Positions 26,269 through 46,947 of a stretch of DNA of 64,000 nucleotides are shown here, piece after piece. Each line of letters begins with the position of its first letter. The stretch's first letter is position 1. The position numbers and the translations under genes are program-made. Source of the stretch: an uncultured Pelagibacteraceae bacterium (lineage in GTDB: Bacteria > Pseudomonadota > Alphaproteobacteria > Pelagibacterales > AG-422-B15); NCBI GenBank assembly GCA_902605215.1, contig CACLBX010000003.1, positions 4,378-68,377 on the forward strand. The letters run 5' to 3'. Below the pieces are notes generated by a model. The model worked only from the letters and a program-made list of their open reading frames with translations. It had not been told where the DNA came from and did no database searches.

Positions 26269-26270
26269 AT

Positions 26271-30987: not shown

Positions 30988-31014
30988 AATTTTTCAATTA
31001 CTTATGCTTTTCTG

Positions 31015-31927: not shown

Positions 31928-31929
31928 AA

Positions 31930-32616
31930 ATGATTGATCTTTATACATCACCCACACCCAACGGTTACAAAATTTCAGTTGCACTAGAAGAGTTAAATAT
32001 TCCTTACAATGTCCATGTTGTTAATCTTCAAGCTGGAGATCAAAAAAAAGAAGAGTTTCTAAAACTTAATCCAAATGGACGAATACCTGTGATTGTTGAC
32101 TCAGAGAATAATAATTTACCAATTATGGAGAGTGGAGCTCAATTGATATATTTGGCAGAAAAAGCAGGCAAACTTTTGCCAAGTGAAACGACAGCTCGAT
32201 CAAAAGTCATGCAATGGCTGATGTTTCAAATGGGTGGTATTGGCCCAATGATGGGACAAGCCAATGTTTTTTTTCGGTATTGGCCTGGTGATAAAATCCA
32301 AGCGGCTGTAGATCGTTATCAAAATGAAGGCCGACGATTATTTGAGGTAATGGAAACACGCTTAAAGGATAATGAATTTTTATCTGATGATTTTAGCATT
32401 GCTGATATTGCCAACTGGTGCTGGGTTAGAACATATAAGTGGTCAGGTATTAAAATCGACGGTTTAACAGGTCTCCAAAGATGGATGCAAATGATGGAAG
32501 ATCGTCCAGCATGTAAAAAAGGTGTAGCTGTCCCAATTGATATTATGGAAATGATGCGTAATATGAAAAAATCTGAAGATTTAACTGCCACTGGCTCAAA
32601 AATAATTCAAAAATAA
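31930..32616 (+). CDS. Glutathione S-transferase (YfcG/YghU-like)
   Basis: LYTSPTPNGYKISVALEEL, NPNGRIPVIVD and ESGAQLIYLAEK are the thioredoxin-fold GSH site. Helical C-terminal domain. Confidence 0.88.
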   Translation: MIDLYTSPTPNGYKISVALEELNIPYNVHVVNLQAGDQKKEEFLKLNPNGRIPVIVDSENNNLPIMESGAQLIYLAEKAGKLLPSETTARSKVMQWLMFQMGGIGPMMGQANVFFRYWPGDKIQAAVDRYQNEGRRLFEVMETRLKDNEFLSDDFSIADIANWCWVRTYKWSGIKIDGLTGLQRWMQMMEDRPACKKGVAVPIDIMEMMRNMKKSEDLTATGSKIIQK

Positions 32617-32630
32617 TATGATTAATAATA

Positions 32631-33668
32631 ATGAGCATTCCTAATCCATTGAAATTAATTGGCGGCGTAGGTTCACCTTACACCAGAAAAATGGTTTCTT
32701 ATTTAAGGTATAAGCGCATACCACATACAATCATCTGGGGAGATCCGGGAGCTTATTTGGATAAAGCTGGAATCGCAAAGCCTAAACCAGGACTACTTCC
32801 AACTTTCATTATGAATTCAGAAAGTGGGGACTTAGAAGCTGTCACAGATTCAACACCTATTATTAGAAAATTGGAAGAAGAAGTACCCGAAAGGAGTTCG
32901 ATCCCAACGGATCCTGCTTTAGCTTTCTTGAATTATCTATTGGAAGACTTTGCAGATGAGTGGGGCACCAAATATATGTTTCATTATCGTTGGCATGATA
33001 TTAAAGATGCAGAAAATGCAGGCACTGTTCTTCCTATCCAAACAATGGGAGTTCTACCTGATGAAATGTTAAGTAATCTCAAAACGATGATAAGCAAAAG
33101 ACAAATTGATCGGTTATGGGTAGTTGGATCAAATAATGATACAGCGCCAATTATTGATGCAAGTTATAGAAGATTGCTGACAGTCTTGGAAAAACATTTT
33201 GCACATTCACCTTATCTTTTAGGTAAGCGACCATCCTCGTCAGACTTTTCTTTGTTTGGACAACTATCACAACTTGTAAACTTTGATCCTACCCCAAGAG
33301 AAATTGCACATGAAGTATCATTAAGAACTGTTGCATGGGTAGGACTTATTGAGGATCAATCAGGAATTGAAGTTACAGACAATGATTGGGTAAGCATTGA
33401 AAGCATTCCGTCTACCATAAAAGAACTTTTATCTGAATTAGGTAAAGGATATGTGCCAGCATTAATTGCGAACGCAAGAGCTATTGAAAATGGAGACAAA
33501 GAATGGGAGACACAAATTGATAGTTGTTCATGGAAGCAAAAATCCTTTCCGTATCAAGCCAAATGTCTGAAGTGGATTAATGAAGAATATAATAAATTGT
33601 CGAATACTGATAAAGATAAGGTAGATAATCTTTTACAAGAAACAAGTTGTGATAAATTATTGAGCTAA
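32631..33668 (+). CDS. GST-like protein (thioredoxin-like N-domain, long C-domain)
   Basis: GSPYTRKMVSYLRYKRIPH N-terminal motif and SSSDFSLFGQL in the C-terminal domain. 345 aa. Confidence 0.6.
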   Translation: MSIPNPLKLIGGVGSPYTRKMVSYLRYKRIPHTIIWGDPGAYLDKAGIAKPKPGLLPTFIMNSESGDLEAVTDSTPIIRKLEEEVPERSSIPTDPALAFLNYLLEDFADEWGTKYMFHYRWHDIKDAENAGTVLPIQTMGVLPDEMLSNLKTMISKRQIDRLWVVGSNNDTAPIIDASYRRLLTVLEKHFAHSPYLLGKRPSSSDFSLFGQLSQLVNFDPTPREIAHEVSLRTVAWVGLIEDQSGIEVTDNDWVSIESIPSTIKELLSELGKGYVPALIANARAIENGDKEWETQIDSCSWKQKSFPYQAKCLKWINEEYNKLSNTDKDKVDNLLQETSCDKLLS

Positions 33669-33671
33669 ATT

Positions 33672-34313
33672 ATGAAAGTAGATTTATATTTTTCCTTTAG
33701 AAGCCCCTATTCGTATTTAATTTTGCCTCGCATGGTTAAATTGAGGGATAAACATGGGGTAGATGTTAACTTCAAGCAAGTTTATCCTCTCGCGATAAGG
33801 GAACCAGAATTTTTTAAAGGTAAAAATCTCTTTACTTACTTCTTAATAAGAAGAATTGATTATGTCAGACAGGCAAAAAAAAATAATATGGTTTTTGTCA
33901 AACCTAATCCTGATCCAATAAATCAAAATTTGGTGACTGGAAAAATTTCTGACCATCAGCCTTATATATTTAAATTGGCTCATTATTGTCAAGCTATTGA
34001 AAAAAGTAAACAACTTGACTTTGCTGTTGTAGTTTCAAATAAAATCTGGAGTGGTCTCAAGAACTGGAATACAGATGAGTCAATAGCCGATGCCACTTCA
34101 AAAGTTGGATTGAGCTTTGAGGATATTGAAAAAAGACGCATTGAAAATGAACAAGCGTTAATTGATGAAATAAAGTTAAATCAAAAAGAGCAACTTGAAG
34201 CAGGGCACCATGGTGTACCTCTATCTGTTTACAAAGATAAATTCTTTTTTGGACAAGATCGTTTTGATGATCTGGTTAGTGAATTAAAAAAAGATGGATT
34301 AGTGATTAGCTGA
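33672..34313 (+). CDS. 2-hydroxychromene-2-carboxylate isomerase / DsbA-like thioredoxin-fold protein
   Basis: VDLYFSFRSPYSYL start and C-terminal GVPLSVYKDKFFFGQDRFD match the HCCA isomerase family pattern. Confidence 0.75.
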   Translation: MKVDLYFSFRSPYSYLILPRMVKLRDKHGVDVNFKQVYPLAIREPEFFKGKNLFTYFLIRRIDYVRQAKKNNMVFVKPNPDPINQNLVTGKISDHQPYIFKLAHYCQAIEKSKQLDFAVVVSNKIWSGLKNWNTDESIADATSKVGLSFEDIEKRRIENEQALIDEIKLNQKEQLEAGHHGVPLSVYKDKFFFGQDRFDDLVSELKKDGLVIS

Positions 34314-34348: not shown

Positions 34349-35221
34349 CTATTGTGCTGATATTCCTCTTATTCTCTCAGATCTTCTTCGTAGTAATTCT
34401 GTTACGATCAGAATTAACGTTGAAAGAACAATTAAGCATGTAGCCACGGCCATAATTGTTGGACTAAGTTGCTCTCTCAGTCCTGTCCACATTTGAAGAG
34501 GAATAGTTGTTAGGTTTCTGTCCCCTCCTGCAACAAATAAGATCACTACTATTTCATCAAACGACGTTACGAATGCAAAGAGCGCGCCTGAAATAATGCC
34601 TGGTGTAATAAGAGGCAGTGTAATTTTAAAAAATGTATTAGTGGGTGTGCTGCCAAGACTTGAAGCGGCTCTCGTAATACTGTCATCAAAACCACTTAAG
34701 GTTGCTGTTACCGTAATAACCACAAATGGAGTTCCTAGAATTATATGAGCTATGACGATGCCGGGAAAAGATGCAGCGAGACCTAATTTTGCAAGAGAAA
34801 AGAAGATAGCTGAGCCAGAAATGATAAGAGGGATAATCATCGGTGATATCAAAATACTCATGATTAATTGTTTGTAAGGCATATAGCGGCTACTTAGGCC
34901 AAGAGCGGCAACGGTCCCTAAAACTGTAGCACCAATAGTTGCAAAAAAAGCATAGTAGACGCTGTTTCTAGCAGCAATTCCCCATGGATTTTTTGTGCCA
35001 TAAACCATGTCTTCATACCATCTTAGAGAGAACGCCTCGGGTTGAAGAGCGAGCATTCCATCAGAAAAGTGAATGTATTGCTCTGCATTAAATGAAAGTG
35101 GGATAATTACAAATAGTGGGGCTATTAGAAAAAAGAATACTGCAGTACAAATGACAAGGTATGAGTAATGCCAAACCCTGTATCTAGTTTCTGTGTACTT
35201 TGGTAAAGCCATCTTATCCAA
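34349..35221 (-). CDS. ABC transporter permease (PotC/PotI-like)
   Basis: 290 aa with six TM and the EAA-type loop AASSLGSTPTNTFFKITLPL. Confidence 0.88.
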   Translation of the reverse strand: MDKMALPKYTETRYRVWHYSYLVICTAVFFFLIAPLFVIIPLSFNAEQYIHFSDGMLALQPEAFSLRWYEDMVYGTKNPWGIAARNSVYYAFFATIGATVLGTVAALGLSSRYMPYKQLIMSILISPMIIPLIISGSAIFFSLAKLGLAASFPGIVIAHIILGTPFVVITVTATLSGFDDSITRAASSLGSTPTNTFFKITLPLITPGIISGALFAFVTSFDEIVVILFVAGGDRNLTTIPLQMWTGLREQLSPTIMAVATCLIVLSTLILIVTELLRRRSERIRGISAQ

Positions 35222-36461
35222 GCCTCATGTTATCGATGCCAACAATCTTATTGTAGAGCCAATAAACTATTAACACAGCCACAAGCAGAACTGCTGCCAT
35301 TGCAGTCGCCAAAGACCAATCGAGAGATTGCTGCATATGATAAGCTATTCTGTTACTGATTAATGTACCCTTGGCGCCCCCAACTAGTGCTGGAGTAATA
35401 TAATATCCAATAGAGAGAACAAAAACCAAAATTGAACCTGCACTTATGCCAGCGTATGTAAGTGGGAAGTAAATTTTTCTGAAAGCAAGGAAAGGAGTGG
35501 CCCCCATCGAAGTTGCCGCTCTCATTAAACTTGGTGGAATAGTTTTCATTACGCTGTAAAGTGGGAGAACCATAAATGGTAATAATATTTGTGTCATCGC
35601 GATAAATGTACCAGTCATGTTGTACATTAATTCAAGCCTTCCTTCGTCCGCGACAATTCCTAAGGATACGAAAATATCATTTAACACTCCTTGTTTTTGC
35701 AATAGGACCATCCAACTAGATGTACGCACTAAAAGAGATGTCCAAAATGGAAGTAGAACGCAGATCATTAGTAAATTTGAGTAACGTGTAGGCAGAACAG
35801 AAAGTAAATGTGATATAGGATATGCAAGTAAGAAACAGCAGAACGTAACACCAGCAGCAACGAAAATAGTTCTTATCCAAAGTGTAACATTGATACGTTT
35901 TTTCTCTGGTATACGTTCAATCGAGCCATCAAATTTTTCTTCATAGTCAAACGTTGTTAAATATTTACGATAGTGATAAGCGTCTGTCCCTCTTTTTAAT
36001 GCTAGCCAATACTCGATATCACCCCACTTTTTATGAGTTTCTATGAACTGATCAAGAAAATTACCATTCTCATCAAAGTCATTCAGTTTTCTTGCAGTTT
36101 TTTTTATGAGACTTGTGAAGCCTCCTTTTTCATAATTTAGTCTTGTAGCTATTTTGCCGTGATTTTTTTCTTCCACTAATCCTTGAAGTTCATAAAAAAA
36201 AGTTGAAGTTATTTCTTCCCCAGGCATTTCAGTACCATCCCACTCTTGCATGACGTCATGGGTATTGCTTAAAAACTCATTCATCTGAACATTATCAATA
36301 CTTCTTCCAAGCATTTGAAATATTGGAATTACATAGGCGAAAACGATAAAGAAAAGTAATGGTGCCGCCAATAAAAAGGCAGTTGTTCTACGTCTTCGTT
36401 CAACCTTTTTGAGTTTTACGGAGAGAAGTTCTCCATCTGATGTTCTGATTTCTGATGTCAT
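35214..36461 (-). CDS. ABC transporter permease (PotB/PotH-like) with a long insertion between TM1 and TM2
   Basis: EAA loop AATSMGATPFLAFRKIYFPL. The ORF track begins at TTG 36497 inside a strong hairpin, so I prefer ATG 36461 (MTSEIR..). Confidence 0.82.
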   Translation of the reverse strand: MTSEIRTSDGELLSVKLKKVERRRRTTAFLLAAPLLFFIVFAYVIPIFQMLGRSIDNVQMNEFLSNTHDVMQEWDGTEMPGEEITSTFFYELQGLVEEKNHGKIATRLNYEKGGFTSLIKKTARKLNDFDENGNFLDQFIETHKKWGDIEYWLALKRGTDAYHYRKYLTTFDYEEKFDGSIERIPEKKRINVTLWIRTIFVAAGVTFCCFLLAYPISHLLSVLPTRYSNLLMICVLLPFWTSLLVRTSSWMVLLQKQGVLNDIFVSLGIVADEGRLELMYNMTGTFIAMTQILLPFMVLPLYSVMKTIPPSLMRAATSMGATPFLAFRKIYFPLTYAGISAGSILVFVLSIGYYITPALVGGAKGTLISNRIAYHMQQSLDWSLATAMAAVLLVAVLIVYWLYNKIVGIDNMRLG

Positions 36462-36487
36462 TAAGTAAAGGATACTTAATTTAAAGG

Positions 36488-36515
36488 ACTTGGGCAACCC
36501 ATAGGTTGCCCAAGT
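36488..36515 (-). terminator. Intercistronic GC-rich stem-loop between the binding-protein and permease genes (attenuator or mRNA stabiliser)
   Basis: Perfect 12-bp inverted repeat ACTTGGGCAACC / GGTTGCCCAAGT with a 4-nt loop (CATA), 9 nt after the binding-protein stop codon. Downstream on the minus strand is only moderately U-rich. Confidence 0.45.
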
Positions 36516-36524
36516 TTTAGTCTT

Positions 36525-37646
36525 TTATAAGTTAGCTTTCCAAGCTTCCCATGTGTCGTTGATATCAGTGTTGTTATCAGCGTACCACTCTGGGTTCATA
36601 AGAACATAGTTCTTAGTGTTTGCTGGAGCTGTAGGCATATGAGGCATAATCTCAACTGCACCTGCTGTAGGTGAATTAAACCAAGGCTCATCAGCCATGA
36701 TTATATCAAGAGATGAGATTCTGAAAGGTGCGTAAGCAATATGCTTTGCACTTCCAGCTAATCCTTCAGAACTTGTGAAGTATTTTAATGCTTCCATCGC
36801 TTCAGCTTCGTTCGGTCCACCTTTTACAAGTACAAAATACTCATAATCAAGAATTTGACCGTCCCAAACCATTTTCATCGGTGAACCTTCGTTCACGATG
36901 GCATTGAAGTGACGTCCATTCCATCCAGTAGCCATAATAGCTTCACCAGATACTAACTGTTCAGGTGGTTGTGCACCAGCTGACCAGAATATGCAACCAC
37001 CCTTAGGGTCGTTACAAAGTGCTGAAAGCTTATCAAGCGCTCTGTCGAGTCCATTTTCTTCCATGTAGTCGTACACGTCAGCTCCTGGAACACCATCTGC
37101 AACAAGAGCAAACTCTAGGTTTGACATTGCAGAGCTATACAGAGATCTTACTCCTGGATATTTGCTTGGATTGAAGAAGTCTTCCATTGATGAAGGGTAA
37201 CTTCCGTCAAAGTTTATGTTATCAGTGTTGTAAGCGTAGTTCCATGAGTAAAGAATGTTACCCACAGCACAGTCACTAGGCATTGGAGCAAAGAAGTCGT
37301 CACTTGCTTTCATACCGTTTACACCAGCTGGGAAGTCATTGTCGAAATCAAATTCTACAAACAATCCTTCGTCACAACCGATAATTGTATCACGTGCATA
37401 CACATCGATGATGTCCCAAGTAATTGCTCCAGACTCGACTTGAGCTTTAACTTCACTCAAACCTCCACTGTAGTCGATCCAGTTTACTTGAACGCCACTC
37501 TTCTCTTGATATGGGTCCCCGTAACCTAGTTTTTGACTTTCTGTATAAGCGCCTCCCCATGAAACTACATTTACTTCCGCAGCTGTAGCCATAGTAGGTG
37601 CCGCCAATAAAGCAGCCAAAGACATTATTTTTGTTAATCTTAACAT
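36525..37646 (-). CDS. ABC transporter periplasmic substrate-binding protein (PotD/PotF-type, family 1)
   Basis: Signal peptide MLRLTKIMSLAALLAAPTMATA. 373 aa. VVSWGGAY start typical of polyamine/amine-type binding proteins. GGAG Shine-Dalgarno 10 nt upstream. Confidence 0.85.
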   Translation of the reverse strand: MLRLTKIMSLAALLAAPTMATAAEVNVVSWGGAYTESQKLGYGDPYQEKSGVQVNWIDYSGGLSEVKAQVESGAITWDIIDVYARDTIIGCDEGLFVEFDFDNDFPAGVNGMKASDDFFAPMPSDCAVGNILYSWNYAYNTDNINFDGSYPSSMEDFFNPSKYPGVRSLYSSAMSNLEFALVADGVPGADVYDYMEENGLDRALDKLSALCNDPKGGCIFWSAGAQPPEQLVSGEAIMATGWNGRHFNAIVNEGSPMKMVWDGQILDYEYFVLVKGGPNEAEAMEALKYFTSSEGLAGSAKHIAYAPFRISSLDIIMADEPWFNSPTAGAVEIMPHMPTAPANTKNYVLMNPEWYADNNTDINDTWEAWKANL

Positions 37647-37767
37647 GATTAATCGTCTCCTTTTTTATATAAAGAAGATATTACATAGGGGCTTTAACAA
37701 AAACGCAACAAAAAAAAGCAAATTTTTTCAATATTTTAGGATTGAATCTATATTTAGTATCAAAGGT

Positions 37768-38856
37768 TTAGTAATCCAATGCTCGACAGTCTTGTGAAGA
37801 CCATCCCAAATTTAATTTGTCACCCAGATTAAGCTTAGAATTACTGCTCGCGTTTGGAACTTTTAAAATAAAATCATCGTTACCCAGCAAATTTACACGT
37901 ACTCTTGTGTGATCTCCGTGGTAAATAATTTCTTTGATTTCAGCTTCAAATCGATTTTCAATTTGCTCAGTTGGATTAATATTTACCCTTTCAGGTCTGA
38001 GAGAAATTCTTGATTTTTCACCAGTAGAAGATACTGCTATTGGGTTAGCTATTATTATCTCACCAGTACTAGTCTCAACTTTTGCAGAACCAGAAGCTAG
38101 TTCTTTTACAGTTCCAGTAAAAGTATTGTTTTCGCCAATAAAGCCAGCAACAAAAGAATTAACAGGTGTTTCATATAGTTCATTTGGACCAGAAAGCTGT
38201 TGAACCTTACCGTCATTAAAGACAGCAATTCTGTTTGACATTGTTAATGCTTCACCTTGATCATGGGTGACATATACGACCGTAACACCTAGTGTTTCAT
38301 GAATATGTTTTAATTCGTATTGCATACTCTCTCGCAAGTTTTTGTCTAACGCACCTAAAGGTTCATCCATTAAAACTAATTTAGGATCAAATACTAATGC
38401 TCTTGCAACAGCAACGCGTTGCTGTTGACCACCAGATAGTTGTGCAGGCATTCTGTTTTCAAAGCCTGTTAGTGAAACCATTTTTAAGGTCTTATTTATA
38501 CGTTCTTCAATTTCTGCCTTATCAATTTTTCTAACTTTTAATGGAAAAGCTAAATTTTCAAATACTGATAGGTGAGGAAAAAGTGCGTAGTTTTGAAAAA
38601 CCATGCCAATGCCTCTTTTGTGAGGAGGTATATTATTGATTGGATTTCCATCAAAATAGATCTCTCCATTAGTAGGCGTCTCAAAGCCTGCAAGCATCAT
38701 TAATGTAGTTGTTTTACCTGAACCTGAAGGCCCTAATAAAGTTAAAAACTCCCCTTCAGCAATATCAAGGTCTAGACCTTTTACGACCAGTTCTTTACCA
38801 TCGTAACTTTTGTCAACTTGTTCAAATTTAACGAAATCTGACTTTTCTCCACTCAT
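37768..38856 (-). CDS. ABC transporter ATP-binding protein (PotA-like, with C-terminal TOBE-like domain)
   Basis: Walker A GPSGSGKTT, signature LSGGQQQRVAVARAL, Walker B LVLMDEPLGALD, H-loop VTHDQ. Confidence 0.93.
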   Translation of the reverse strand: MSGEKSDFVKFEQVDKSYDGKELVVKGLDLDIAEGEFLTLLGPSGSGKTTTLMMLAGFETPTNGEIYFDGNPINNIPPHKRGIGMVFQNYALFPHLSVFENLAFPLKVRKIDKAEIEERINKTLKMVSLTGFENRMPAQLSGGQQQRVAVARALVFDPKLVLMDEPLGALDKNLRESMQYELKHIHETLGVTVVYVTHDQGEALTMSNRIAVFNDGKVQQLSGPNELYETPVNSFVAGFIGENNTFTGTVKELASGSAKVETSTGEIIIANPIAVSSTGEKSRISLRPERVNINPTEQIENRFEAEIKEIIYHGDHTRVRVNLLGNDDFILKVPNASSNSKLNLGDKLNLGWSSQDCRALDY

Positions 38857-38974
38857 GTTTTCAGACTAAGGTAAAAATAGTTGGGAATCTAGGGTTATTT
38901 AAACTAAATTAACTATAGATAAAAATTATAATAAAGTTCGTTAATTAGGCAAAACAAGATATTACAAAGTATAA

Positions 38975-40408
38975 ATGAAAAAATATCAACACTACATAAA
39001 TGGAGAGTGGATTGACTCCACAGGAAATGAACTTATTGCTGTTGTAAATCCTGCAACAGAAGAAGTAATTGGAGAAATTTCAGCTGCTAATAAAGATGAT
39101 ATTGGCCTTGCTGTTGCGGCGGCTAAAACAGCTTACGAGTCACGAGTGCTTGTCGACATGAATCCTATGGAGAGAGCAAAGTTGATGCGCAGTATCGCTG
39201 ATGAATTAAGAAAAATCAGCAAAGATGGCGGCAAACTATTATGTGAAGAAAATGGAAAATTATTGGGTGCATCTGAGTATGAATTTTTGGATGCGGCAAA
39301 CTATTTTGACTATTACAGTGGATTGACTGACAAAATTGAAGGCCAGACTATTCCAGTAAATAATCAAGTCATGGATTATACATTGTATGAACCATATGGT
39401 GTTTCAGGTCACATTGTTCCTTGGAACTTTCCGATTTCAATGTTGGCACGTTCACTTGCCTGTTCATTTGCTGCAGGAAATTCGACAGTTATAAAACCTG
39501 CTGAGCTAACTCCTCTGGCAACTACCTCATTTTTTGCACAGGCTATTCACAATGCAGGTGTACCGAAGGGACTTATTAATATAGTAACCGGATACGGCGT
39601 TGAAGCAGGAGCTGCATTGACATCAAATAATGATGTTGCTCAAATCACATTCACTGGCTCTGTGAAAACTGGAAAGGCAATTCTCCATGCTGCTGCAGAA
39701 AGAGCTGTGCCAGCAGTAGTAGAGCTAGGCGGTAAATCAGCTGCCGTTGTATTGCCAGATGCTGATATAGATAAAGTTGTTAACGCAACAAAAGTTGGAA
39801 TATTTAGTCAAGCTGGACAAATATGTTCAGCAATGTCACGCATGATTGTTCATAAATCTATTAAAGACGAGGTATTGGATAAGCTATCGGAATTAGCCAA
39901 ATCAATAAAAGTTGGTCCAGGAAATGAAGAAGGCGTTGACCTAACACCTGTAATTTCCGAAGAACAGCTTCAAAAAGTAGAAAACTTCGCAAGATCAGGT
40001 TTGCAAGCTGGAGCGACAGCAATATCAGGAGGTAATCGAGTTGATCGTAAAGGATATTTCTTTGAGCCAACAATTTATGCTGATGTGAAGCCGGATATGA
40101 CAATTGCTCAAGAAGAAATTTTTGGCCCATTCCTATCTGTGCTTGAATATGAAGATCATGAAGAAGCAATTCATATTGCAAATGATACAGACTACGGTTT
40201 AGCGGCAGGTGTATTTACAAAAGATGTTGATATGGCAACAAAGACAGCAGCGAAGCTTAACGGTGGACAAGTTTATGTGAATAGTTGGTTTACTGGCAGT
40301 GTTGCAACTCCTTTTGGTGGGTATAAACAATCAGGCTATAGTCGTGAAAAAGGTCAGCAAGCTATAAAAAGCTATTTACAATTAAAGAATGTTGGAATTC
40401 AACTTTAA
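38975..40408 (+). CDS. NAD(P)-dependent aldehyde dehydrogenase
   Basis: 477 aa. VPWNFP, FTGSVKTGK, ELGGKSA, GQICSAMSR (catalytic Cys) and EEIFGPF. Confidence 0.92.
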   Translation: MKKYQHYINGEWIDSTGNELIAVVNPATEEVIGEISAANKDDIGLAVAAAKTAYESRVLVDMNPMERAKLMRSIADELRKISKDGGKLLCEENGKLLGASEYEFLDAANYFDYYSGLTDKIEGQTIPVNNQVMDYTLYEPYGVSGHIVPWNFPISMLARSLACSFAAGNSTVIKPAELTPLATTSFFAQAIHNAGVPKGLINIVTGYGVEAGAALTSNNDVAQITFTGSVKTGKAILHAAAERAVPAVVELGGKSAAVVLPDADIDKVVNATKVGIFSQAGQICSAMSRMIVHKSIKDEVLDKLSELAKSIKVGPGNEEGVDLTPVISEEQLQKVENFARSGLQAGATAISGGNRVDRKGYFFEPTIYADVKPDMTIAQEEIFGPFLSVLEYEDHEEAIHIANDTDYGLAAGVFTKDVDMATKTAAKLNGGQVYVNSWFTGSVATPFGGYKQSGYSREKGQQAIKSYLQLKNVGIQL

Positions 40409-41023
40409 TTAATCATTATCTGCAAGACCAGCTCCGGCAGCTGTGCTCTTTAATTTTTCATTTTCTTCAACAAAGGTATCTGTTGATAATTCATACAACT
40501 CATCCCAAACTTCTTGAGAAAAGGAATCCTCATTTTCAAAAACCATTATTCTAATGTTTTTTGCATTTTCTAATATCAATGAATTAATATCATTATTACT
40601 AAACATGTACTTATCTAAATTAAATTTAAAATTGTACTCATCAATCTCAATGCTGACTCTTTTCCCAATAAGAAATGAAAGTCTACTTATGAAAGGAATC
40701 ATAAGAAGAGGGAAGCTAACATTATAAAAATTAATTTCTTTTAATATTTCTATATTCTTAAAATCATCTATCAGACTGACTCCTGTTAGAATAGGGCAAA
40801 GATTTTCATTATCTATTTTGTTTTGGGACTCGATGACATTAGGACCAATTGGTGTTTTAGTTTTTATATCACTTAAGTAGGATTTTAAATTCTCAATACC
40901 AGCAATTCCTATTAATTCTAATACATCAATATTTTTTCCAACTTCTTCAGCTATGCCCCACGAGTATCCTGCAGCTTTAGTAGCTCTTTTAGAAACTGTA
41001 ATGATTTCACTCGAGGACCTCAT
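40409..41023 (-). CDS. Hypothetical protein, DUF3726-like
   Basis: 204 aa. The N-terminal AAGYSWGIAEEVGKN segment resembles DUF3726 from memory. Last gene of a tightly packed three-gene operon. Confidence 0.4.
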   Translation of the reverse strand: MRSSSEIITVSKRATKAAGYSWGIAEEVGKNIDVLELIGIAGIENLKSYLSDIKTKTPIGPNVIESQNKIDNENLCPILTGVSLIDDFKNIEILKEINFYNVSFPLLMIPFISRLSFLIGKRVSIEIDEYNFKFNLDKYMFSNNDINSLILENAKNIRIMVFENEDSFSQEVWDELYELSTDTFVEENEKLKSTAAGAGLADND

Positions 41024-41027
41024 GGAA

Positions 41028-42686
41028 TTATGAATAGATCCATCTATCGTTGGTTTGACTTATTTCATTCATAAGAGGAGCTCCTTGATACATACATATT
41101 CTCAACCATTTATCAGAACGAGGGTCAAATTTTTGTGCCCCAAAAAAAGATAACTTTAATCGCAGCATATCAATGGGCATTAAATTTGATCCGATCGAAT
41201 TATCTTGAATTTCCGAATATGGTAACTTCTCAGCTATAAAGCATCTTCTTACCACATGTCTTAAATCGCTATTGTTCCCTAAAAACTCAGACAAAATTTG
41301 GTCTTCAGGAACATCCAAAAGACGATAATACAGATCATTTATATCACGAGCGATGGCAAGAGGCTGTTCCAACTCAGATCCATCGTCATCAAATCTGTTT
41401 GCTAACCTTGGCTCCTCTTTATTTTTTGAGATAAACCAGAATTTTTCGTTTGGCTCATTTTTTGAGAAATCAATCTCTATAATATCTCTGTAACCTTTAG
41501 AAATTATATTCTTTAATTCACTTACTTTTTTATACGTTGGTATATTGAAATATAAATCTTCATTGGAACTCATATTTGATATCAAAGGGTTAATAATAGA
41601 GTCGTAAGGTTCCATCATCAGTGAAATAATAAATTCAATACCTTCAAAACTTAAGTGTTTTTCAATCCATGTATAAAGATGATCCCAAAGATTATCTTTA
41701 TCTACAGACAAGGTTGAAAGATATTCACTTTCAAATTTTTTAATATCATTCCTTAAATCTTTTATTTTTTTTATTTGATAGGCACTTTCTGTTTCCCAAG
41801 TACTAATCATATTTTTAGAAAGCTTGAGACATTCCTTAAATATGCTTAGGTCACTTTCCTTTACTTTACTTATTTCTCTAATCTGTTTTAACGCTTCTTC
41901 TTTAGCAAAAATCCACTGATGCAACAGAGATGGATGATTAATAATAAAAGGAGCCATGCCAAGTCCTGTAGAATTTCCTATTCCAAGTTTACGCGCTATT
42001 GACTGATCAAGTTTAACAGCCAATTTAGGATTCTTCTTTTTAGCAATGTGATTAACCTGGTCAAATGTAAACTGACGCACTAAATAAACCAACATCATTT
42101 CAAGTCGAAAGGGACCATTAATTTCTTTACGGTCTTTAATTCTATATCGATCAGCTAATCCAAATTTACCAGATCCATAAACCGCCGTGGTTCTATAGAG
42201 GTAGCCAACTTTTTTTATTAAAGATAAATCAGGTTGAATTCCATTTGAAAGTTTTTCAACAACATGATTAAAAATTCTTACAGACTTATTTGCTCTCGAT
42301 AATGTTAATTCTTTATAACTGCATCGGCCAACTTCCTGCTTAGGAACATTCAATTTTAATCTTTGAATATCTTTTTCTGTTGGTATTCCATCGTGAAGAA
42401 CAAATGCTGCATCCCACTTCGTAGCAATTACTCTGTCAGACCTTTCTGAGGCATCAAGTTCATTAGCAAAGCAAATCAATGAATAGGTGCGACTATCTTT
42501 ACTAACTGAATAAACTGCAGTACCGAACCCTTGGTTATCAAGATCAAATAAATCACATTTAAATGTCCAACTTTTAAATTCTCTCACAAAACTTCTCAGA
42601 AAAGATAGCTTTGTCTGATGAAAGGAGCCCAATCGCTTTAGTGTCATGACTTCATGAGGATCGCGGTGCTTAATTTGATTATGCAT
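41028..42686 (-). CDS. Conserved-looking hypothetical protein, 552 aa, no recognised domain
   Basis: Long uninterrupted ORF with typical composition. 1-nt overlap with the upstream M19-like gene and a 4-nt gap to the downstream gene. Confidence 0.6.
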   Translation of the reverse strand: MHNQIKHRDPHEVMTLKRLGSFHQTKLSFLRSFVREFKSWTFKCDLFDLDNQGFGTAVYSVSKDSRTYSLICFANELDASERSDRVIATKWDAAFVLHDGIPTEKDIQRLKLNVPKQEVGRCSYKELTLSRANKSVRIFNHVVEKLSNGIQPDLSLIKKVGYLYRTTAVYGSGKFGLADRYRIKDRKEINGPFRLEMMLVYLVRQFTFDQVNHIAKKKNPKLAVKLDQSIARKLGIGNSTGLGMAPFIINHPSLLHQWIFAKEEALKQIREISKVKESDLSIFKECLKLSKNMISTWETESAYQIKKIKDLRNDIKKFESEYLSTLSVDKDNLWDHLYTWIEKHLSFEGIEFIISLMMEPYDSIINPLISNMSSNEDLYFNIPTYKKVSELKNIISKGYRDIIEIDFSKNEPNEKFWFISKNKEEPRLANRFDDDGSELEQPLAIARDINDLYYRLLDVPEDQILSEFLGNNSDLRHVVRRCFIAEKLPYSEIQDNSIGSNLMPIDMLRLKLSFFGAQKFDPRSDKWLRICMYQGAPLMNEISQTNDRWIYS

Positions 42687-43657
42687 TAATGAATATTCTC
42701 TCTATAAAAATTAAACCAGTTGTCGCCTAATATTGAATCTACTTCTGTATCATCAAAGCCAACTTCTTTTAAGCCTAATTCAAGATTATTAAATCCTAAA
42801 GTATTTTCAAACCATTCTGGCTGTGTAGGGAATGCTGCATCACTTTTAGATCCTTCTCCATAATCCTTAGTTTTTGTCCAGGTCCCATTTCTCATCCACT
42901 CAACAACAGAGTCAGGTTGACCAAGACATAAATCTGATCCAATACCAACATGATCAATTCCCATTAGGTCTACAGTCCTTGCTGTCATTTCACAAAAACT
43001 TTTAAGAGTACAATTAGTTCCTCCAAGAAGATGGTGAGGATAAAGTGAGAGACCTATTATGCCCTTTGACTGACTAAGTGCTTTTAATATTTCATTTGAT
43101 TTGTTTCTTCTAGCTGGATGCCAAAAGGAGGGATTAGCATGGGTAATAGCAATGGGCTTTTCTGAAATCGTTATTGCATCTAGCGTTGATTGCTCAGCTG
43201 AGTGCGACATATCCACAACGATTCCAACTTTATTCATTTCCTTAATTACCTCTCTACCCATTCGGGTTACCCCACTATCGTTATCTTCATAACAACCTGT
43301 TGCAAGTAAAGATTGATTATTATAGGTAAGCTGCATAAAGACTGCTCCTAAATCATGAACAGATTTAACGAGATTAATATCGTCTTCAATGGGTGAGCAG
43401 TTTTGAAAACCAAAAAAGACAGCAGTTTTATTTTCCTCTTTTGCTTTTTCTATATCTTTGTAGGTCCTTCCATGTATCAATAAATTATCAAATTCTTCAA
43501 AATAAGTATTCCACTGCTCTACATTATTTTTTACTTCATCAAAATCTTCATGATAAGCGATGGTTACATGAATTGCATTTAAACCAGCTTCATTGTTGGT
43601 TTTAAAAATTTCTTCTGACCAATTACAATATTGTAAATTATCGATTCTATAGGTCAT
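42686..43657 (-). CDS. Peptidase M19 (renal/membrane dipeptidase) family homologue, atypical metal site
   Basis: MQLTYNNQS, GVTRMGREVIKEMNKVGIVVDMSHS, PIAITHANP and HVGIGSDL match the M19 TIM-barrel. The DGHND-type and EGG-type motifs are replaced (IDNLQY, GFQNC). Confidence 0.78.
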   Translation of the reverse strand: MTYRIDNLQYCNWSEEIFKTNNEAGLNAIHVTIAYHEDFDEVKNNVEQWNTYFEEFDNLLIHGRTYKDIEKAKEENKTAVFFGFQNCSPIEDDINLVKSVHDLGAVFMQLTYNNQSLLATGCYEDNDSGVTRMGREVIKEMNKVGIVVDMSHSAEQSTLDAITISEKPIAITHANPSFWHPARRNKSNEILKALSQSKGIIGLSLYPHHLLGGTNCTLKSFCEMTARTVDLMGIDHVGIGSDLCLGQPDSVVEWMRNGTWTKTKDYGEGSKSDAAFPTQPEWFENTLGFNNLELGLKEVGFDDTEVDSILGDNWFNFYRENIH

Positions 43658-43865
43658 ATAATTCTAATTCGTTGATCATTGTGTCTACTCATATACTATG
43701 AAAGCGTTGAGAGGGAAACAATGCTAAGAAAATCAATTTTTGAGCTATTCTAATGATTTTTTGACGAAACTGCGACAATTTTGGCCCTAATTCTTATACT
43801 GAAGTTCTTTCTTTCTTTTTTTAAGATATTATATTTAAGCTGATACTAATTTTAATAGCTACATT

Positions 43866-44465
43866 ATGTACACACCCATTAACCAATATATCGAAAGACT
43901 GGAGAATATCTCCTTTAATGTTGATGAACTTAATAAAGCTGTATCAGACCTCATAAAGATCAGACCTTTTGAAAATGATAACTTAAAAAATGGTATGCTA
44001 AAATCTAATGCCATCTGCTTAAACTATGATGAGAAAGAACTTGATGAGTGGTTTGGTGGAAATATAAGAGGCAAATACTGGACGAAGCCTGACTCTTCTT
44101 TTGAGGAAATGGAGCGCGAACCATATATTGACGAGACGAGATATACATTATTTAACCCAAAGTTAGACAATACCTACTTTAAATTTGTTTATGAAAAAAT
44201 TAATGAGTACTTCGAAGTTGGAAGGTGCAGAGTAATCAAAATGCCTCCAAGAACTACACTAAGCTGGCATCGTGATCCTGAGAAACGCATACACGTTGCG
44301 ATTAAAACAAATTATGGAGCTAGGATGTTTATTGAGCATACAGGTCATCATATTCCTGCTGATGGAAATATTTATCTAACCGACAATACTAAGTACCACA
44401 CAGCAATCAATGGTGGTGAGGAAGATCGAATTCATCTAGTCGCAACTGTGTTGGGCACAAAATAG
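43866..44465 (+). CDS. Cupin-fold, aspartyl/asparaginyl beta-hydroxylase-like 2OG/Fe(II) oxygenase (putative)
   Basis: 199 aa. LSWHRDPEKRIHVAIKTN .. KYHTAINGGEEDRIHLV gives an HxD...H arrangement as in the Asp/Asn beta-hydroxylase family. Confidence 0.5.
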   Translation: MYTPINQYIERLENISFNVDELNKAVSDLIKIRPFENDNLKNGMLKSNAICLNYDEKELDEWFGGNIRGKYWTKPDSSFEEMEREPYIDETRYTLFNPKLDNTYFKFVYEKINEYFEVGRCRVIKMPPRTTLSWHRDPEKRIHVAIKTNYGARMFIEHTGHHIPADGNIYLTDNTKYHTAINGGEEDRIHLVATVLGTK

Positions 44466-44467
44466 TT

Positions 44468-45808
44468 TTAGCAATCAATAATATTTTTTCTTTCCCAATC
44501 TTTTTTATTTTCATCACTAACTTTATTGTGTTCTGCGATTTCCCTTTTTTTAAGTTTTAAGTATTGTGAGACAACTTTTGAGCTTATGGATTTTCTTACA
44601 ACTTCACTGGCTTTAAATTTATTAAGTGACTCTATTAGAGACTGAGGTAACTTTTTAATTCTCTTTAACTTATGTCCTTGTGAATACATATTCACATCTA
44701 CCCTCTTGCCAGGATTTCTTTTATTTTTTATTCCATCCAATCCCATAGCAATCAGCCCAGCTTGCAAGAGATATGGATTAACTGCACCATCGGCGGGTCT
44801 AAATTCTATCCTTCCAGCATCTGGTATTCTGATCATATGGGTTCGGTTATTTCCTGAATAGGTTACAGCAGTAGGTGAGTATGTTGATCCTGAATTAGTT
44901 GTTCTCGCATTCAAACGATCATAACTATTTAATGATGGGTTGAACCAAGCAGAAAATGAATCAACAGATTTCATTATCCCGCCAATAAAGTGGTAGCCCA
45001 TTTTGGACAATCCAAGCTCATTATCCTGATTAAGAAAATGATTTTTTTTCTTTTTTAAATCCCATAAAGATGCATGCGCATGACAACCATTTCCAGTTAA
45101 ATCATCAAAAGGCTTGGGCATAAAAGTAGCCCTTAAGCCGTGTTTCTCAGCAATAGATTTTACCATAAATTTAAAAAAAACATGTCGGTCTGCAGTCGTA
45201 AGTGAGTCAGTGTAGTCCCAATTCATTTCATATTGGCCATTTGCATCTTCGTGATCGTTTTGATAGGGCTTCCACCCAAGCTTGATCATAGAGTCACAAA
45301 TTTCCTTTAAAATATCATAGCGCCTCATCAATGCCGCGACGTCGTAGCAAGGCTTTTGAGCATCGTCCCTTGAATCAGCAACCTCAGTTCCAGCTTCATT
45401 AAGTATGAAAAATTCACATTCTACACCCGTCATCATTTTAAAATTGAGATCTGTCATTTGTCTAATTTGTTTTTTGAGAATGACACGTGGGCATTGATCC
45501 ATAGGCGCATTGTTAATCACCAGATCACTGGCCAACCAACCGACATCAGGTTGCCATGGTAATTGTATGAGACTGTCAGGGTCTGGAACGGCAAACATAT
45601 CTGGGGCTGCAAAATCAAGGTCCAAGTAAGTTGCAAAACCGCCAAATCCAGCACCAGTTTTTTGCATTTCAGAAATAGCGCGGGCTGGCACTAATTTTGC
45701 ACGCTGTATACCAAACAAATCGACAAAACTGATTAAGAAGTATTTGATTTTCTTTTGTTGAGCGATCTTAGCTAAACTGCTTTTCATAATTAGAATTATG
45801 ACTTCCAA
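44468..45808 (-). CDS. Glutamine synthetase family ligase (gamma-glutamyl-amine synthetase type: GmaS/PuuA-like)
   Basis: FVDLFGIQRAKLVP beta-grasp start, GVECEFF, HEDANGQYEMNW, GNGCHAHASLW and NSYDRL. The true start may be ATG 45787. Confidence 0.85.
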   Translation of the reverse strand: MEVIILIMKSSLAKIAQQKKIKYFLISFVDLFGIQRAKLVPARAISEMQKTGAGFGGFATYLDLDFAAPDMFAVPDPDSLIQLPWQPDVGWLASDLVINNAPMDQCPRVILKKQIRQMTDLNFKMMTGVECEFFILNEAGTEVADSRDDAQKPCYDVAALMRRYDILKEICDSMIKLGWKPYQNDHEDANGQYEMNWDYTDSLTTADRHVFFKFMVKSIAEKHGLRATFMPKPFDDLTGNGCHAHASLWDLKKKKNHFLNQDNELGLSKMGYHFIGGIMKSVDSFSAWFNPSLNSYDRLNARTTNSGSTYSPTAVTYSGNNRTHMIRIPDAGRIEFRPADGAVNPYLLQAGLIAMGLDGIKNKRNPGKRVDVNMYSQGHKLKRIKKLPQSLIESLNKFKASEVVRKSISSKVVSQYLKLKKREIAEHNKVSDENKKDWERKNIIDC

Positions 45809-45882
45809 AATATTAAATTCAATAATGAATTATAAGCTATATTTATGTTACATAAAACCCAATTTGGGCATACTATCGTATT

Positions 45883-46947
45883 ATGGATCCACACTTAGTA
45901 GCAAAAAAAAACAAAGTTATTGATCTCATTAACAATCTAGAAGATGGCAACTTTGCATTGTTGCTCTTAATTCATATCTCTCGGTATCAAAATTTATTTT
46001 TGCATACAGAACCTGATTGGGAAAACAGCCCAAATAATTGGATAACCAAAGACAGACGACTCCAAGATGAGTCTATCGGAGTTCTTTCGTTCATCATTTT
46101 ATATTCTCTCACCAATGCGCATGTGGATGAAAATCTTTTTCCTGAATATAGAAAGCAAATTAAGGCAATGAAAATTGAAGATTTCTTGGATAATAATTTT
46201 TTTATTTCTCCATTCACAAATTTTATTGGAAAAAAAATATCTCTGAAAGTTCTTGAGTCATTTTTTTCTATTCCCCGAGAAAATATAAGACGATATATAA
46301 AGTCGTTGATAGAGGCTGGGTTTATTAGTAAAAACAAAAAGTATGGTTACCTTGTAAACATGGAGGCGTATGTTCAATACATATTTACAGACTCTCTTAG
46401 TAAAATTATGAAGTCACTCATGAGAACATTCGATGATATTATCGTTAATCTTGAAGAAAAGTATCAACTAAAATTAAATTTAAAACCAATCTCAGTTATA
46501 AATTTAGAAAAGACAAAACCCGATGTATGGAATCGAATTAGATTGCCCATGTATCACTTTTGGGTAAGAGTTCTAACACTAGAAGGCAATGATCACCTTT
46601 TAAGCCCCAATGATCGAGTTGTCTTATCTGCATCGATCTATTTTAGGAAACGTAAAGGAATATTAAATTTCACTAAAATTTCTGAGCTTTACGAAAATGA
46701 TTATCTCTTACCAACAAATATTTCATCAATTGCAGAGGCATCTAAAATGCCACGAGAAACTGTGAGGAGGTGTAGTAATAAATTAATAAAGATGAGACAT
46801 TTTGAAAAAAAAGGACGTCAACTGTATAGAATTAATTACGCTCATAAAGATGGAGAAATAGAAAATTTTATCAAGAATAAGAAAGTTACAACTCGCGATA
46901 TGATGAATTTTTATTTTAGAATTTACGATGATTTAGTTCAGATTTAA
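45883..46947 (+). CDS. Hypothetical protein with two winged-helix-like segments (possible regulator)
   Basis: 354 aa. IPRENIRRYIKSLIEAGFISK and ASKMPRETVRRCSNKLIKMRHFEKKGR look like recognition helices of MarR/Rrf2-like wHTH domains. Confidence 0.45.
   Translation: MDPHLVAKKNKVIDLINNLEDGNFALLLLIHISRYQNLFLHTEPDWENSPNNWITKDRRLQDESIGVLSFIILYSLTNAHVDENLFPEYRKQIKAMKIEDFLDNNFFISPFTNFIGKKISLKVLESFFSIPRENIRRYIKSLIEAGFISKNKKYGYLVNMEAYVQYIFTDSLSKIMKSLMRTFDDIIVNLEEKYQLKLNLKPISVINLEKTKPDVWNRIRLPMYHFWVRVLTLEGNDHLLSPNDRVVLSASIYFRKRKGILNFTKISELYENDYLLPTNISSIAEASKMPRETVRRCSNKLIKMRHFEKKGRQLYRINYAHKDGEIENFIKNKKVTTRDMMNFYFRIYDDLVQI

Follow-up and report, generated by a model that had tools for sequence, protein, structure and literature searches.

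A probable SAR11 version of the homarine catabolic gene cluster within a lineage-specific island

Introduction

An island of 11 open reading frames (ORFs) in the genome of an uncultured Pelagibacteraceae bacterium (SAR11), found at positions 34349-46947 of a 64-kb stretch of contig CACLBX010000003.1 (assembly GCA_902605215.1; the whole stretch is hereafter called the window), is probably the form that the homarine catabolic cluster takes in SAR11, surrounded by a lineage-specific set of genes that centres on N-methylglutamate. Its core is a trio of genes, encoding a Peptidase_M19-like (M19) protein, a 552-residue protein and a DUF3726 protein, which, as judged from their sequences and surroundings, are very likely to be homC, homB and homA, respectively. 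Homarine is an abundant phytoplankton metabolite and, of the ocean's heterotrophs, SAR11 are the most abundant. The initial annotation of this DNA had depicted a catabolic island for a nitrogenous osmolyte-like compound, organised around an unknown three-gene core and with a substrate that could not be deduced. The match to the hom genes bears out the first part of this picture, including the key position of the core, and overtakes the second, since the core was identified experimentally in 2026 (PMC13236597) and a strong candidate substrate, homarine, can now be named.

Identity of the three-gene core

The homABCDER operon for the catabolism of homarine (N-methylpicolinate) was described by Ferrer-Gonzalez et al. 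(2026, Nat Microbiol; PMC13236597), which is the source of all the statements in this paragraph. In Cobetia sp. OBi1, ACFLL8_11490-11520 correspond, in this order, to homE (11490), homA (11495), homB (11500), homT (11505, a BCCT/betaine-type transporter), homC (11510, a predicted peptidase), homD (11515, an aldehyde dehydrogenase) and homR (11520), homE being optional, while in Ruegeria pomeroyi the hom genes run from SPO3188 (homA) to SPO3192 (homR). The homA gene measures ~700 nucleotides (nt) and homB ~1,700 nt, the two are adjacent in 97.7% of the genomes, and growth on homarine is lost upon knock-out of homB, homC, homD or homR. Labelled homarine is converted to N-methylglutamate and then, via N-methylglutamate dehydrogenase, to glutamate; the N-methylglutamate product, demonstrated in Cobetia, R. 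pomeroyi and seawater communities, keeps the carbon skeleton of homarine, with no gamma-glutamyl adduct. The operon was found in SAR116, Vibrionales, Rhodobacterales and 120 Pelagibacter genomes, the latter all without homE, which is also missing from R. pomeroyi and 94% of Alphaproteobacteria. Hidden Markov models (HMMs) for homA/homB, reported to be specific, recovered Pelagibacter transcripts that track homarine concentrations.

The trio connects to this operon through roseobacters. The megaplasmid of Ruegeria sp. TM1040 carries, in order, genes for a LysR regulator, an aldehyde dehydrogenase, a membrane dipeptidase, a BCCT transporter, a hypothetical protein and a DUF3726 protein, which mirrors the homR-D-C-T-B-A arrangement of Cobetia; a second Ruegeria has LysR, aldehyde dehydrogenase, M19, a homologue of the 552-residue protein and DUF3726, an order that matches SPO3192 to SPO3188. 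The window proteins share with those of TM1040 59% (M19), 46% (552-residue protein, full length) and 26% (DUF3726) identity, the alignment of the 552-residue protein covering 99% of its length with an E-value of 6e-168, and the M19 protein is 49-53% identical to M19 proteins of Vibrio and Psychrobacter. Gene sizes fit the published ones as well (615 nt for the DUF3726 gene, compared with homA; 1,659 nt for the gene of the 552-residue protein, compared with homB), and the 552-residue family occurs in taxa that PMC13236597 lists for hom. It is this combination of architecture, gene sizes, predicted functions, taxon distribution and homology to the roseobacter operons that leads us to equate the trio with homC/homB/homA, names used below with this proviso. 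A literature search for SPO3188-3191 found only the entry 'SPO3188 hypothetical protein' and one on DUF3726 found no paper, while a protein search starting from the TM1040 HomB returned many roseobacters, R. pomeroyi DSS-3 not being among the named matches.

Gene neighbourhoods in SAR11

Species-representative genomes were scanned using the 552-residue protein (HomB) as the single query, which yielded 80 loci, all in Pelagibacteraceae, on which the window proteins were mapped by tblastn. Wherever the contig extends far enough, homC, homB and homA occur together and in the same order, so that the conservation of the trio, initially suggested as something to check, is confirmed; the clustering is not due to chance. 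Synteny of the island as a whole had been expected too, but this holds for only 19 of the 80 loci (the full island appears again in metagenome contigs), where the order is TolC-like protein, 354-residue protein, GmaS, cupin, trio, aldehyde dehydrogenase, potA, binding protein, potB, potC, DSBA and glutathione S-transferases (GSTs). In 57 of the 80 loci, the trio has no GmaS, cupin, aldehyde dehydrogenase or importer within 10 kb. These solo-trio loci include Ca. Pelagibacter sp. HIMB1409 and HIMB1483 and a Ca. P. ubique assembly, in which HomB is ~66-67% identical to that of the window. The HIMB1483 trio lies between purE/purK and genes for a GcvT-like aminomethyltransferase, an MTHFR-like protein and a Rieske oxygenase, with SoxA/SoxG-like genes 6 kb off.

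Other SAR11 arrangements shuffle the same pieces. In L008 and L015, a divergent glutamine synthetase (GS)-like gene is found upstream together with GATase, GXGXG and GltS-FMN genes, and the aldehyde dehydrogenase, the cupin and a paralogous importer are found downstream. Three types can be told apart in metagenomes: type A, which is the window arrangement; type B, which reads pot', cupin, aldehyde dehydrogenase / homABC / divergent GS-like gene plus GATase and GXGXG genes; and type C, which differs from B in having the window-type importer and, beside homA, an additional Ldh_2 gene. In non-Ia SAR11, homABC are consistently linked to an ATP-binding cassette (ABC) importer, a Cpz10-like oxygenase, a betaine-aldehyde dehydrogenase (BADH)-like enzyme and a GS-like ligase, a linkage that does not feature in the main text of PMC13236597.

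Could this linkage be, in part, an accident of position? On that account, homABC, an osmolyte importer with its BADH-like aldehyde dehydrogenase and cupin, and gmaS would be independent neighbours in a streamlined genome, much as the trio of Ia SAR11 stands alone between purEK and the GcvT-like, MTHFR-like and Rieske set. GmaS fulfils a complete known function by itself, and SAR11 genomes are dense, with genes for one-carbon (C1) and methyl-group metabolism clustered in one region (PMC3160333). We nevertheless regard it as rather unlikely, because the set of cupin, aldehyde dehydrogenase, pot and homABC is kept through three gene orders, because a GS-like gene flanks the cluster in all three (its type changing) and because cupins at least 71% identical to that of the window have only island genes among their matched neighbours. 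In addition, the importer is directly downstream of homA and co-directional with it in L007 and L088, which read homC-homB-homA-potA-binding protein-potB-potC on one strand with no gene between.

Two further features of SAR11 loci deserve mention in their own right. In Ia-type loci (that of HIMB1483, L060 12425-16519, and 50-odd others), the trio is followed by genes for a 188-residue protein and GcvT-like, MTHFR-like and Rieske proteins, which are kept in 38-56 loci and may be a different set of hom partners. The Ldh_2 gene beside homA is seen in metagenome loci L105-L118, L125 and L134, and also at L086 10403-11410 and L087 10389-11396; the SAR11-like gene is 52-56% identical to the Ldh-family gene adjoining homA in Ruegeria, and it may be an accessory hom gene that is unnamed in the main text of PMC13236597.

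The module outside SAR11

Protein searches gave access to contexts outside SAR11, which resemble one another to a striking degree: each has a regulator, an aldehyde dehydrogenase, M19, a transporter, the 552-residue protein and DUF3726. Vibrio mediterranei and Psychrobacter have LysR / RidA, aldehyde dehydrogenase, M19, BCCT, 552-residue protein and DUF3726; Ammoniphilus has 552-residue protein, M19, DUF3726, aldehyde dehydrogenase, IclR, RidA and BCCT; and Amycolatopsis has LysR / aldehyde dehydrogenase, 552-residue protein, M19, a DUF3726-like protein, RidA and MFS. In TM1040, sox-alpha/gamma-like genes and a helix-turn-helix (HTH) gene precede LysR and an Ldh-family gene comes after DUF3726, and an Ldh_2 gene likewise follows DUF3726 in the second Ruegeria. 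None of the six examined non-SAR11 loci with a complete hom-type module, from Ruegeria, Vibrio, Psychrobacter, Ammoniphilus and Amycolatopsis (four phyla by our count), has a GS-like gene.

No SAR11 locus has a RidA-type gene, which fits the absence of homE reported for Pelagibacter, provided that homE is the RidA-like gene. The Ldh_2 gene was also considered for homE and set aside, as an Ldh gene is present in roseobacter operons even though R. pomeroyi and 94% of Alphaproteobacteria lack homE; a better candidate for homE would be the RidA-like gene of Vibrio and Psychrobacter.

A Hyphomicrobiales metagenome-assembled genome (MAG; L083 10001-15385) encodes a 901-residue HomB-containing fusion, after which come an ABC transporter, whose binding protein is of the NMT1 type, and a LacI regulator; no M19 gene and no aldehyde dehydrogenase gene lie nearby. 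This fusion is a different use of the HomB scaffold.

The core proteins

HomB belongs to a large family (1372 representatives of clusters at 50% identity, with E-values up to 1e-3, all of them unnamed). Its AlphaFold2 (AF2) model, built on a 58-sequence alignment, is of high confidence (pLDDT 94.6, pTM 0.93) and finds no match in the PDB by Foldseek at E-values up to 1e-3. Invariant residues in this alignment include R204, W258, W417 and the motif G235-x-G237-N-S-T-G. HomB is the presumed catalytic subunit for homarine ring opening, and it would not act alone, since gene fusions argue for a physical association of HomA and HomB: many representatives are HomB-HomA fusions (P0122, P0123 and P0125 among them). 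A HomC-HomB fusion exists as well (P0332).

The HomA model (pLDDT 79, on an alignment built from fusion proteins) has as its best PDB matches exclusively Ldh_2-family dehydrogenases, acting on malate, sulfolactate, ureidoglycolate and diketogulonate, over 111-140 aligned columns with a probability of ~1, TMq values of 0.39-0.48 and weak E-values (0.03-0.3). The Ammoniphilus homologue matches positions 1-135 of the Pfam Ldh_2 model, the only such match among HomA proteins, and a conserved C-terminal tail, AAGAGLxDND, is shared by SAR11 and roseobacters. Modelling thus points to HomA being a truncated Ldh_2-like domain, a relative of the Ldh_2 family rather than a member, since it has 204 residues vs ~340 for the full fold and aligns only partially. 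The published description has HomA carrying FAD-binding motifs (PMC13236597); despite these, the comparison of predicted folds does not favour a flavin-binding fold.

The closest solved structure to HomC is 2I5G (E-value 3e-52), an uncharacterised 'amidohydrolase' and not a dipeptidase. In M19 enzymes such as renal dipeptidase and Sco3058, the metal ligands are an N-terminal HxD motif, a bridging Glu and two His. HomC retains two His motifs and an Asp motif (DMSH, THANP and GIGSDL), but its N-terminus reads IDNLQYCNW, all orthologues having IDxLQYxNW in place of HxD, and its GFQN aligns with GAEGG of Sco3058, which puts a Gln in the position of the bridging Glu in all HomC orthologues. As far as these motifs go, HomC is unlikely to be a classical binuclear dipeptidase. 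The altered site is the same in orthologues from SAR11 to Actinobacteria (the window, L060, L081, L082, L084, L085 and L086), which argues for conserved chemistry.

Genes added to the core

The importer had been read initially as a PotABCD-type system. It is indeed Pot-type by fold, but among the PotABCD equivalogs only the ATPase reaches a cut-off, that of the PotA subfamily, with PotB, PotC and PotD left unmatched, and the implied use of polyamines is improbable: the PotD-annotated SAR11_1336 of HTCC1062 has glycine betaine (Kd 2 nM), dimethylsulphoniopropionate (DMSP) and other osmolytes as its ligands and does not bind polyamines (Clifton et al., 2024; PMC11485210). The only relative of the window binding protein with a solved structure, at 63% identity, is PDB 8JV1-4, whose deposited title is 'Spermidine/putrescine-binding periplasmic protein', entries that we infer to be linked to SAR11_1336. 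By analogy, it is probably a betaine/osmolyte binder and a candidate homarine binder. Homarine is itself a betaine, which makes its uptake by this importer a reasonable expectation. Between the genes for the binding protein and PotB, a perfect 15-bp GC-rich hairpin (36485-36518) may act as an attenuator within the operon, or else stabilise the mRNA and so raise the amount of binding protein relative to permease.

The aldehyde dehydrogenase in the homD position shares 32-35% identity with its hom-linked counterparts in Ruegeria, Vibrio and Psychrobacter, whereas those counterparts share 61-78% among themselves, and for this reason it appears to be a recruited enzyme, with no close orthology to HomD. 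As for the cupin, described initially as hydroxylase-like, its best structural guide is the Cpz10 beta-hydroxylase (7V4F, E-value 8e-17), with H135-x-D137, H178 and R188-I-H aligned (PMC9814697), and it is predicted to be a conserved accessory Fe(II)/2-oxoglutarate (Fe/2OG) oxygenase peculiar to the SAR11 island. Scanning metagenomes with the cupin as query found 37 loci at 71% identity or more, in which the matched neighbours are all hom, aldehyde dehydrogenase, pot or GmaS, and more distant cupins (37-49% identity) in other contexts. The 354-residue gene next to gmaS is conserved in island-type loci (55-95% identity), and it carries the weakest of the initial labels, that of a winged HTH (wHTH) regulator: two weak HTH-like segments speak for it, but no family model does at threshold (no NCBIfam match, and HTH matches that are all sub-threshold).

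These additions raise the question of whether the island might degrade some other N-methylated heteroaromatic compound or betaine (e.g. trigonelline or another pyridinium), or a broader set of them, by means of diverged hom-like enzymes, in which case a different chemistry would account for the Fe/2OG oxygenase and the non-orthologous aldehyde dehydrogenase. Consistent with this, identity to the roseobacter proteins is modest for HomB and low for HomA, a conserved oxygenase is added in every non-Ia arrangement, the importer family is of broad specificity (PMC11485210) and the functions of the SAR11 enzymes are known from sequence alone. We find it unlikely, given that the homA/homB HMMs were reported to be specific and the Pelagibacter transcripts tracked homarine (PMC13236597), that M19 is the most similar of the three proteins to its roseobacter counterpart (at 59%) and that the active-site signature of HomC is identical from SAR11 to Actinobacteria.

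The ligase and its relation to the hom genes

The ligase is predicted to be a genuine gamma-glutamylmethylamide synthetase (GmaS), and not GlnA or PuuA, since it passes the GmaS equivalog model TIGR03105 (Table 1) and stays below the cut-offs of the GlnA (279 vs 429 bits) and PuuA (NF045547; 244 vs 650 bits) models. Its best solved relative is the Rhodovulum GmaS 7CQL (E-value 1.5e-158, 52% identity). When residues are read from the alignment to 7CQL (chain numbering offset of +20) against PMC7948447, the equivalents of R312, D177, E186 and K30' are conserved, as are the motifs NNR, QND, YEM and RAK. The ammonium-binding Asp50' and the flap Glu of GS are absent, replaced by Gly and Tyr, the Gly standing at the position of Ala48' and the Tyr at that of Trp300 in RhGmaS. 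The ligase was initially assigned to the amine-gamma-glutamylating kind (PuuA, GmaS or IpuC); this stands, with the exception of PuuA, and model scores and structure match both place the protein with GmaS and apart from GlnA.

What is a GmaS doing beside homABC? The main text of PMC13236597 makes no mention of gmaS or glutamine synthetase. Arrangements differ in their GS-like partner: type A has a true GmaS, GmaS is found beyond potC in L113, and types B and C have a 490-residue paralogue that is 27% identical to the window GmaS and scores 299 bits with TIGR03105 vs a cut-off of 469.6. This divergent gene, with its GATase, GXGXG and GltS-FMN companions, lies directly upstream of homC in a layout like that of gmaS-mgsABC, and SAR11_1313-1316 of HTCC1062 may be the counterpart of either this cluster or the window-type GmaS. 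The simplest reading is that the GS-like ligase beside hom marks a metabolic hub on N-methylglutamate; we propose that the two are neighbours because both routes, directly from homarine and from methylamine via GmaS and Mgs, converge on this compound and from there on depend on N-methylglutamate dehydrogenase. A link to N-methylglutamate is found elsewhere, with sox/mgd-like genes adjoining hom in TM1040 and in Ia SAR11. GmaS may also recapture methylamine if an N-methyl imine intermediate hydrolyses, or it may make the N-methylglutamine that was detected, fully carbon-labelled and singly 15N-labelled, in PMC13236597.

The initial annotation had gone in another direction, modelled on the Puu pathway: the GS-like ligase would glutamylate an imported amine, and the trio together with the cupin would replace the oxidase and the gamma-glutamyl hydrolase, two enzymes that it rightly found missing (no FAD oxidase and no class-I GATase-type hydrolase were found in the region). 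A GS-family amine ligase, an aldehyde dehydrogenase and a Pot-type importer do cluster here, GS-like genes recur beside the trio in several SAR11 arrangements, and M19 enzymes are amidohydrolases that could in principle cleave a gamma-glutamyl amide. However, the trio goes without a GS-like gene in 57/80 SAR11 loci and in 6/6 complete-module loci outside SAR11, which detaches it from gamma-glutamylation; linkage of the trio to unrelated pathways in other genomes is a result that the initial annotation had itself named as refuting its model. The ligase is predicted to be a GmaS equivalog, not PuuA, and the GS-like partner is inconstant. Moreover, the published pathway leads from homarine to N-methylglutamate through homC/B/A with no gamma-glutamyl step (PMC13236597). 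A Puu-like pathway appears largely refuted by gene order already, and we give it hardly any credence.

A model for homarine use in SAR11

Returning to homarine, the genes can be arranged into the following putative pathway: (i) the PotD-type ABC importer would take up homarine, and probably other betaines too; (ii) HomB and HomA, acting as one enzyme, would open the N-methylpyridinium ring; (iii) HomC would hydrolyse an amide-type intermediate of ring opening; (iv) the adjacent aldehyde dehydrogenase would oxidise the resulting aldehyde; (v) the product would be N-methylglutamate, as shown in Cobetia, R. pomeroyi and seawater communities (PMC13236597) and here extended to the SAR11 host; and (vi) an N-methylglutamate dehydrogenase encoded outside the window would yield glutamate and a C1 unit. 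GmaS, for its part, would convert methylamine and glutamate to gamma-glutamylmethylamide at the expense of ATP.

A number of points weigh against this. To begin with, the link to the experimentally tested genes (SPO3188-3191 and ACFLL8_11495-11515) is indirect, passing through architecture, sizes, functions, taxa and roseobacter homology, and the SAR11 evidence in the main text of PMC13236597 consists of Pelagibacter homB transcripts tracking homarine. Some expected genes are missing: there is no LysR-type homR at 30-50 kb of the window, where the sole candidate is the 354-residue protein with its sub-threshold HTH matches, no BCCT homT at the island, where a Pot-type ABC importer takes its place, and no mgsABC or mgd/sox genes (GATase, GXGXG, GltS or sox-like) in the 64-kb window. 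The aldehyde dehydrogenase, only 32-35% identical to hom-linked enzymes and absent from the Ia-type and L007/L088 arrangements, may serve another aldehyde, e.g. betaine aldehyde. Finally, the coupling of both the oxygenase and GmaS to hom is proposed from gene placement, and the orthology of the binding protein to SAR11_1336, like its binding of homarine, is assumed by analogy.

The island may also go further than homarine catabolism as published, and we entertain, tentatively, the possibility of a larger pathway in non-Ia SAR11, beyond the main text of PMC13236597, with a different exit for homarine and with HomB founding a new class of ring-opening enzymes. Its parts may be homABC, a dedicated high-affinity ABC importer, the Cpz10-like oxygenase, the recruited BADH-like aldehyde dehydrogenase and the GS-family ligase. 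The exit could be methylamine release followed by ATP-dependent recapture, or N-methylglutamine formation, or else the oxygenase could remove the N-methyl group oxidatively, so that N-methylglutamate dehydrogenase would be bypassed; a wider range of pyridinium or betaine substrates is possible too. Separately, HomB would found a structurally new class of N-methylpyridinium ring-opening enzymes, working with a degenerate Ldh_2 HomA and a metal-reduced M19 scaffold.

Layout of the island and neighbouring regions

The initial coordinates of the eleven ORFs (Table 1) agree with the ORF list. Within the trio, homC and homB overlap by 1 nt and homB is separated from homA by 4 nt, all on the same strand, and the aldehyde dehydrogenase gene abuts homA tail to tail. 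The region has a G+C content of ~34-38%, and its close relatives are all Pelagibacteraceae single-cell genomes, MAGs or isolates. A promoter/terminator scan of the island was uninformative, with fewer promoter-like sites than in shuffled sequence.

Table 1. Features of the island, with window coordinates (last row: related clusters in other loci).
Feature	Coordinates	Strand	Domain and model matches
PotC-like ABC importer permease	34349-35221	-	BPD_transp_1; PotC model 141.6 bits vs cut-off 326 (no equivalog)
PotB-like ABC importer permease, long N-terminal extension	35214-36497	-	BPD_transp_1 at residues 236-416; PotB model 144.2 bits vs 348
Periplasmic solute-binding protein, SAR11 PotD-type	36525-37646	-	SBP_bac_8; no NCBIfam match
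ABC importer ATPase, PotA subfamily, TOBE domain	37768-38856	-	ABC_tran and TOBE_2; TIGR01187 389.6 bits vs cut-off 355.6
Aldehyde dehydrogenase, BADH-like, homD position	38975-40408	+	Aldedh 527.8 bits; best NCBIfam betaine-aldehyde dehydrogenase, 449 bits vs 668.6
homA (predicted), DUF3726 protein, 204 residues, 615 nt	40409-41023	-	PF12525, E-value 9.6e-17
homB (predicted), 552 residues, 1,659 nt	41028-42686	-	No Pfam or NCBIfam match
homC (predicted), Peptidase_M19-like	42686-43657	-	PF01244, 232.7 bits, matched only from model position 40 on
Small putative Fe(II)/2-oxoglutarate oxygenase (cupin), 199 residues	43866-44465	+	Asp_Arg_Hydrox, E-value 4e-7
gmaS (predicted), GS-family ligase	44468-45808	-	TIGR03105 600.3 bits vs cut-off 469.6
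354-residue protein, two weak wHTH-like segments, possible regulator divergent from gmaS	45883-46947	+	Sub-threshold HTH matches only
Divergent GS-like cluster	L008 1485-6116; L098, L101, L103, L107, L109, L110		

The island has varied neighbours. On one side, window positions 46944-61205 encode a 925-residue TolC-like outer-membrane protein with a long acidic C-terminal extension and a He_PIG domain, a 2374-residue cadherin-like/Big_9 repeat protein and three HlyD-like proteins, one of them fused to Peptidase_M50, a set suggestive of a system for secreting a giant surface protein. On the other, a DJ-1/PfpI-like gene, two small unassigned genes, two GST genes and a DSBA-like gene occupy 30112-34313; in every island-type locus, potC has conserved DSBA and GST genes at its side. 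Farther away (19376-29736) are genes for a GH1 glycosidase, a galactokinase-like GHMP kinase, an MFS_2 symporter, a serine beta-lactamase-like protein, an Fe-ADH, a dienelactone hydrolase, a sulfatase and a protein with a metallo-beta-lactamase fold.

Significance

The hom genes have been named (PMC13236597), which leaves to explain (i) the chemistry of the enzymes, (ii) three intermediates left unidentified in that paper (C7H9NO5, C6H9NO4 and C6H9NO3) and (iii) the origin of N-methylglutamine; the same study reports that some Vibrio grows on homarine without mgd. The SAR11 island offers candidates for these tasks, namely an importer, an Fe/2OG oxygenase, an alternative aldehyde dehydrogenase and a GS-like ligase, to which the Ldh-family gene shared with roseobacters can be added, and it physically ties homarine use to the methylamine/N-methylglutamate network. 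If these links are functional, the routing of homarine-derived nitrogen and C1 units in a dominant ocean bacterium changes; if they are not, the region is one more instance of the published operon. What is still new here is the make-up of the island, particular to SAR11 (importer, oxygenase, recruited aldehyde dehydrogenase, GS-like ligase and sometimes Ldh), and the enzymology of HomA, HomB and HomC. It is worth bearing in mind that several annotation names are misleading here, i.e. 'PotABCD polyamine importer', 'membrane dipeptidase' and 'type III glutamine synthetase'.

Comparison with known systems

Set against known systems, the island resembles each in part. With the Puu pathway of E. 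coli (PuuP/PuuA/PuuB/PuuC/PuuD), it has in common a GS-family ligase, an aldehyde dehydrogenase and an importer in one cluster, but its ligase fails the PuuA model, PuuB-type oxidase and PuuD-type hydrolase were not found, and the role of the trio has been genetically established otherwise. The GmaS/N-methylglutamate pathway (gmaS-mgsABC-mgdABCD; 7CQL, PMC7948447) is closer as far as the ligase is concerned, in view of the equivalog pass, the 52% identity and the conservation of the catalytic Arg/Asp/Glu and Lys30', the differences being the Tyr in place of Trp300 and a gmaS that adjoins hom genes instead of mgsABC/mgdABCD. HomC matches the M19 family (PF01244; renal dipeptidase, Sco3058 and GliJ) and keeps the His, His and Asp motifs, but has neither the N-terminal HxD nor the bridging Glu (replaced by Gln), and therefore lacks the full set of metal ligands. 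The importer compares well with the SAR11_1336 transporter, as the window has a PotD-annotated-type SBP_bac_8 protein in a potA-D-B-C type operon and homarine fits a betaine profile; it differs in that a paralogous importer, with a binding protein ~40% identical, takes its place in other SAR11 arrangements.

The tgn system of Acinetobacter baylyi for trigonelline, an analogy cited in PMC13236597, likewise deals with an N-methylpyridinium carboxylate whose ring is opened before demethylation with the involvement of an aldehyde dehydrogenase, but, according to the present tests, neither HomA nor HomB is related to the Rieske/flavin pair TgnAB, HomA looking like Ldh_2-family proteins rather than a flavin reductase and HomB matching no solved structure. 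This leaves the hom operon itself, from which the island departs by (i) a 354-residue wHTH-like gene instead of a LysR homR, (ii) a Pot-type ABC importer instead of a BCCT homT, (iii) an aldehyde dehydrogenase that is no close orthologue of the hom-linked ones, (iv) the addition of a predicted Fe/2OG oxygenase and gmaS and (v) a different gene order, with the aldehyde dehydrogenase gene convergent on homA. What the two share is a DUF3726-type gene of ~0.6-0.7 kb beside a family-less gene of ~1.7 kb, together with an M19-like peptidase and an aldehyde dehydrogenase.

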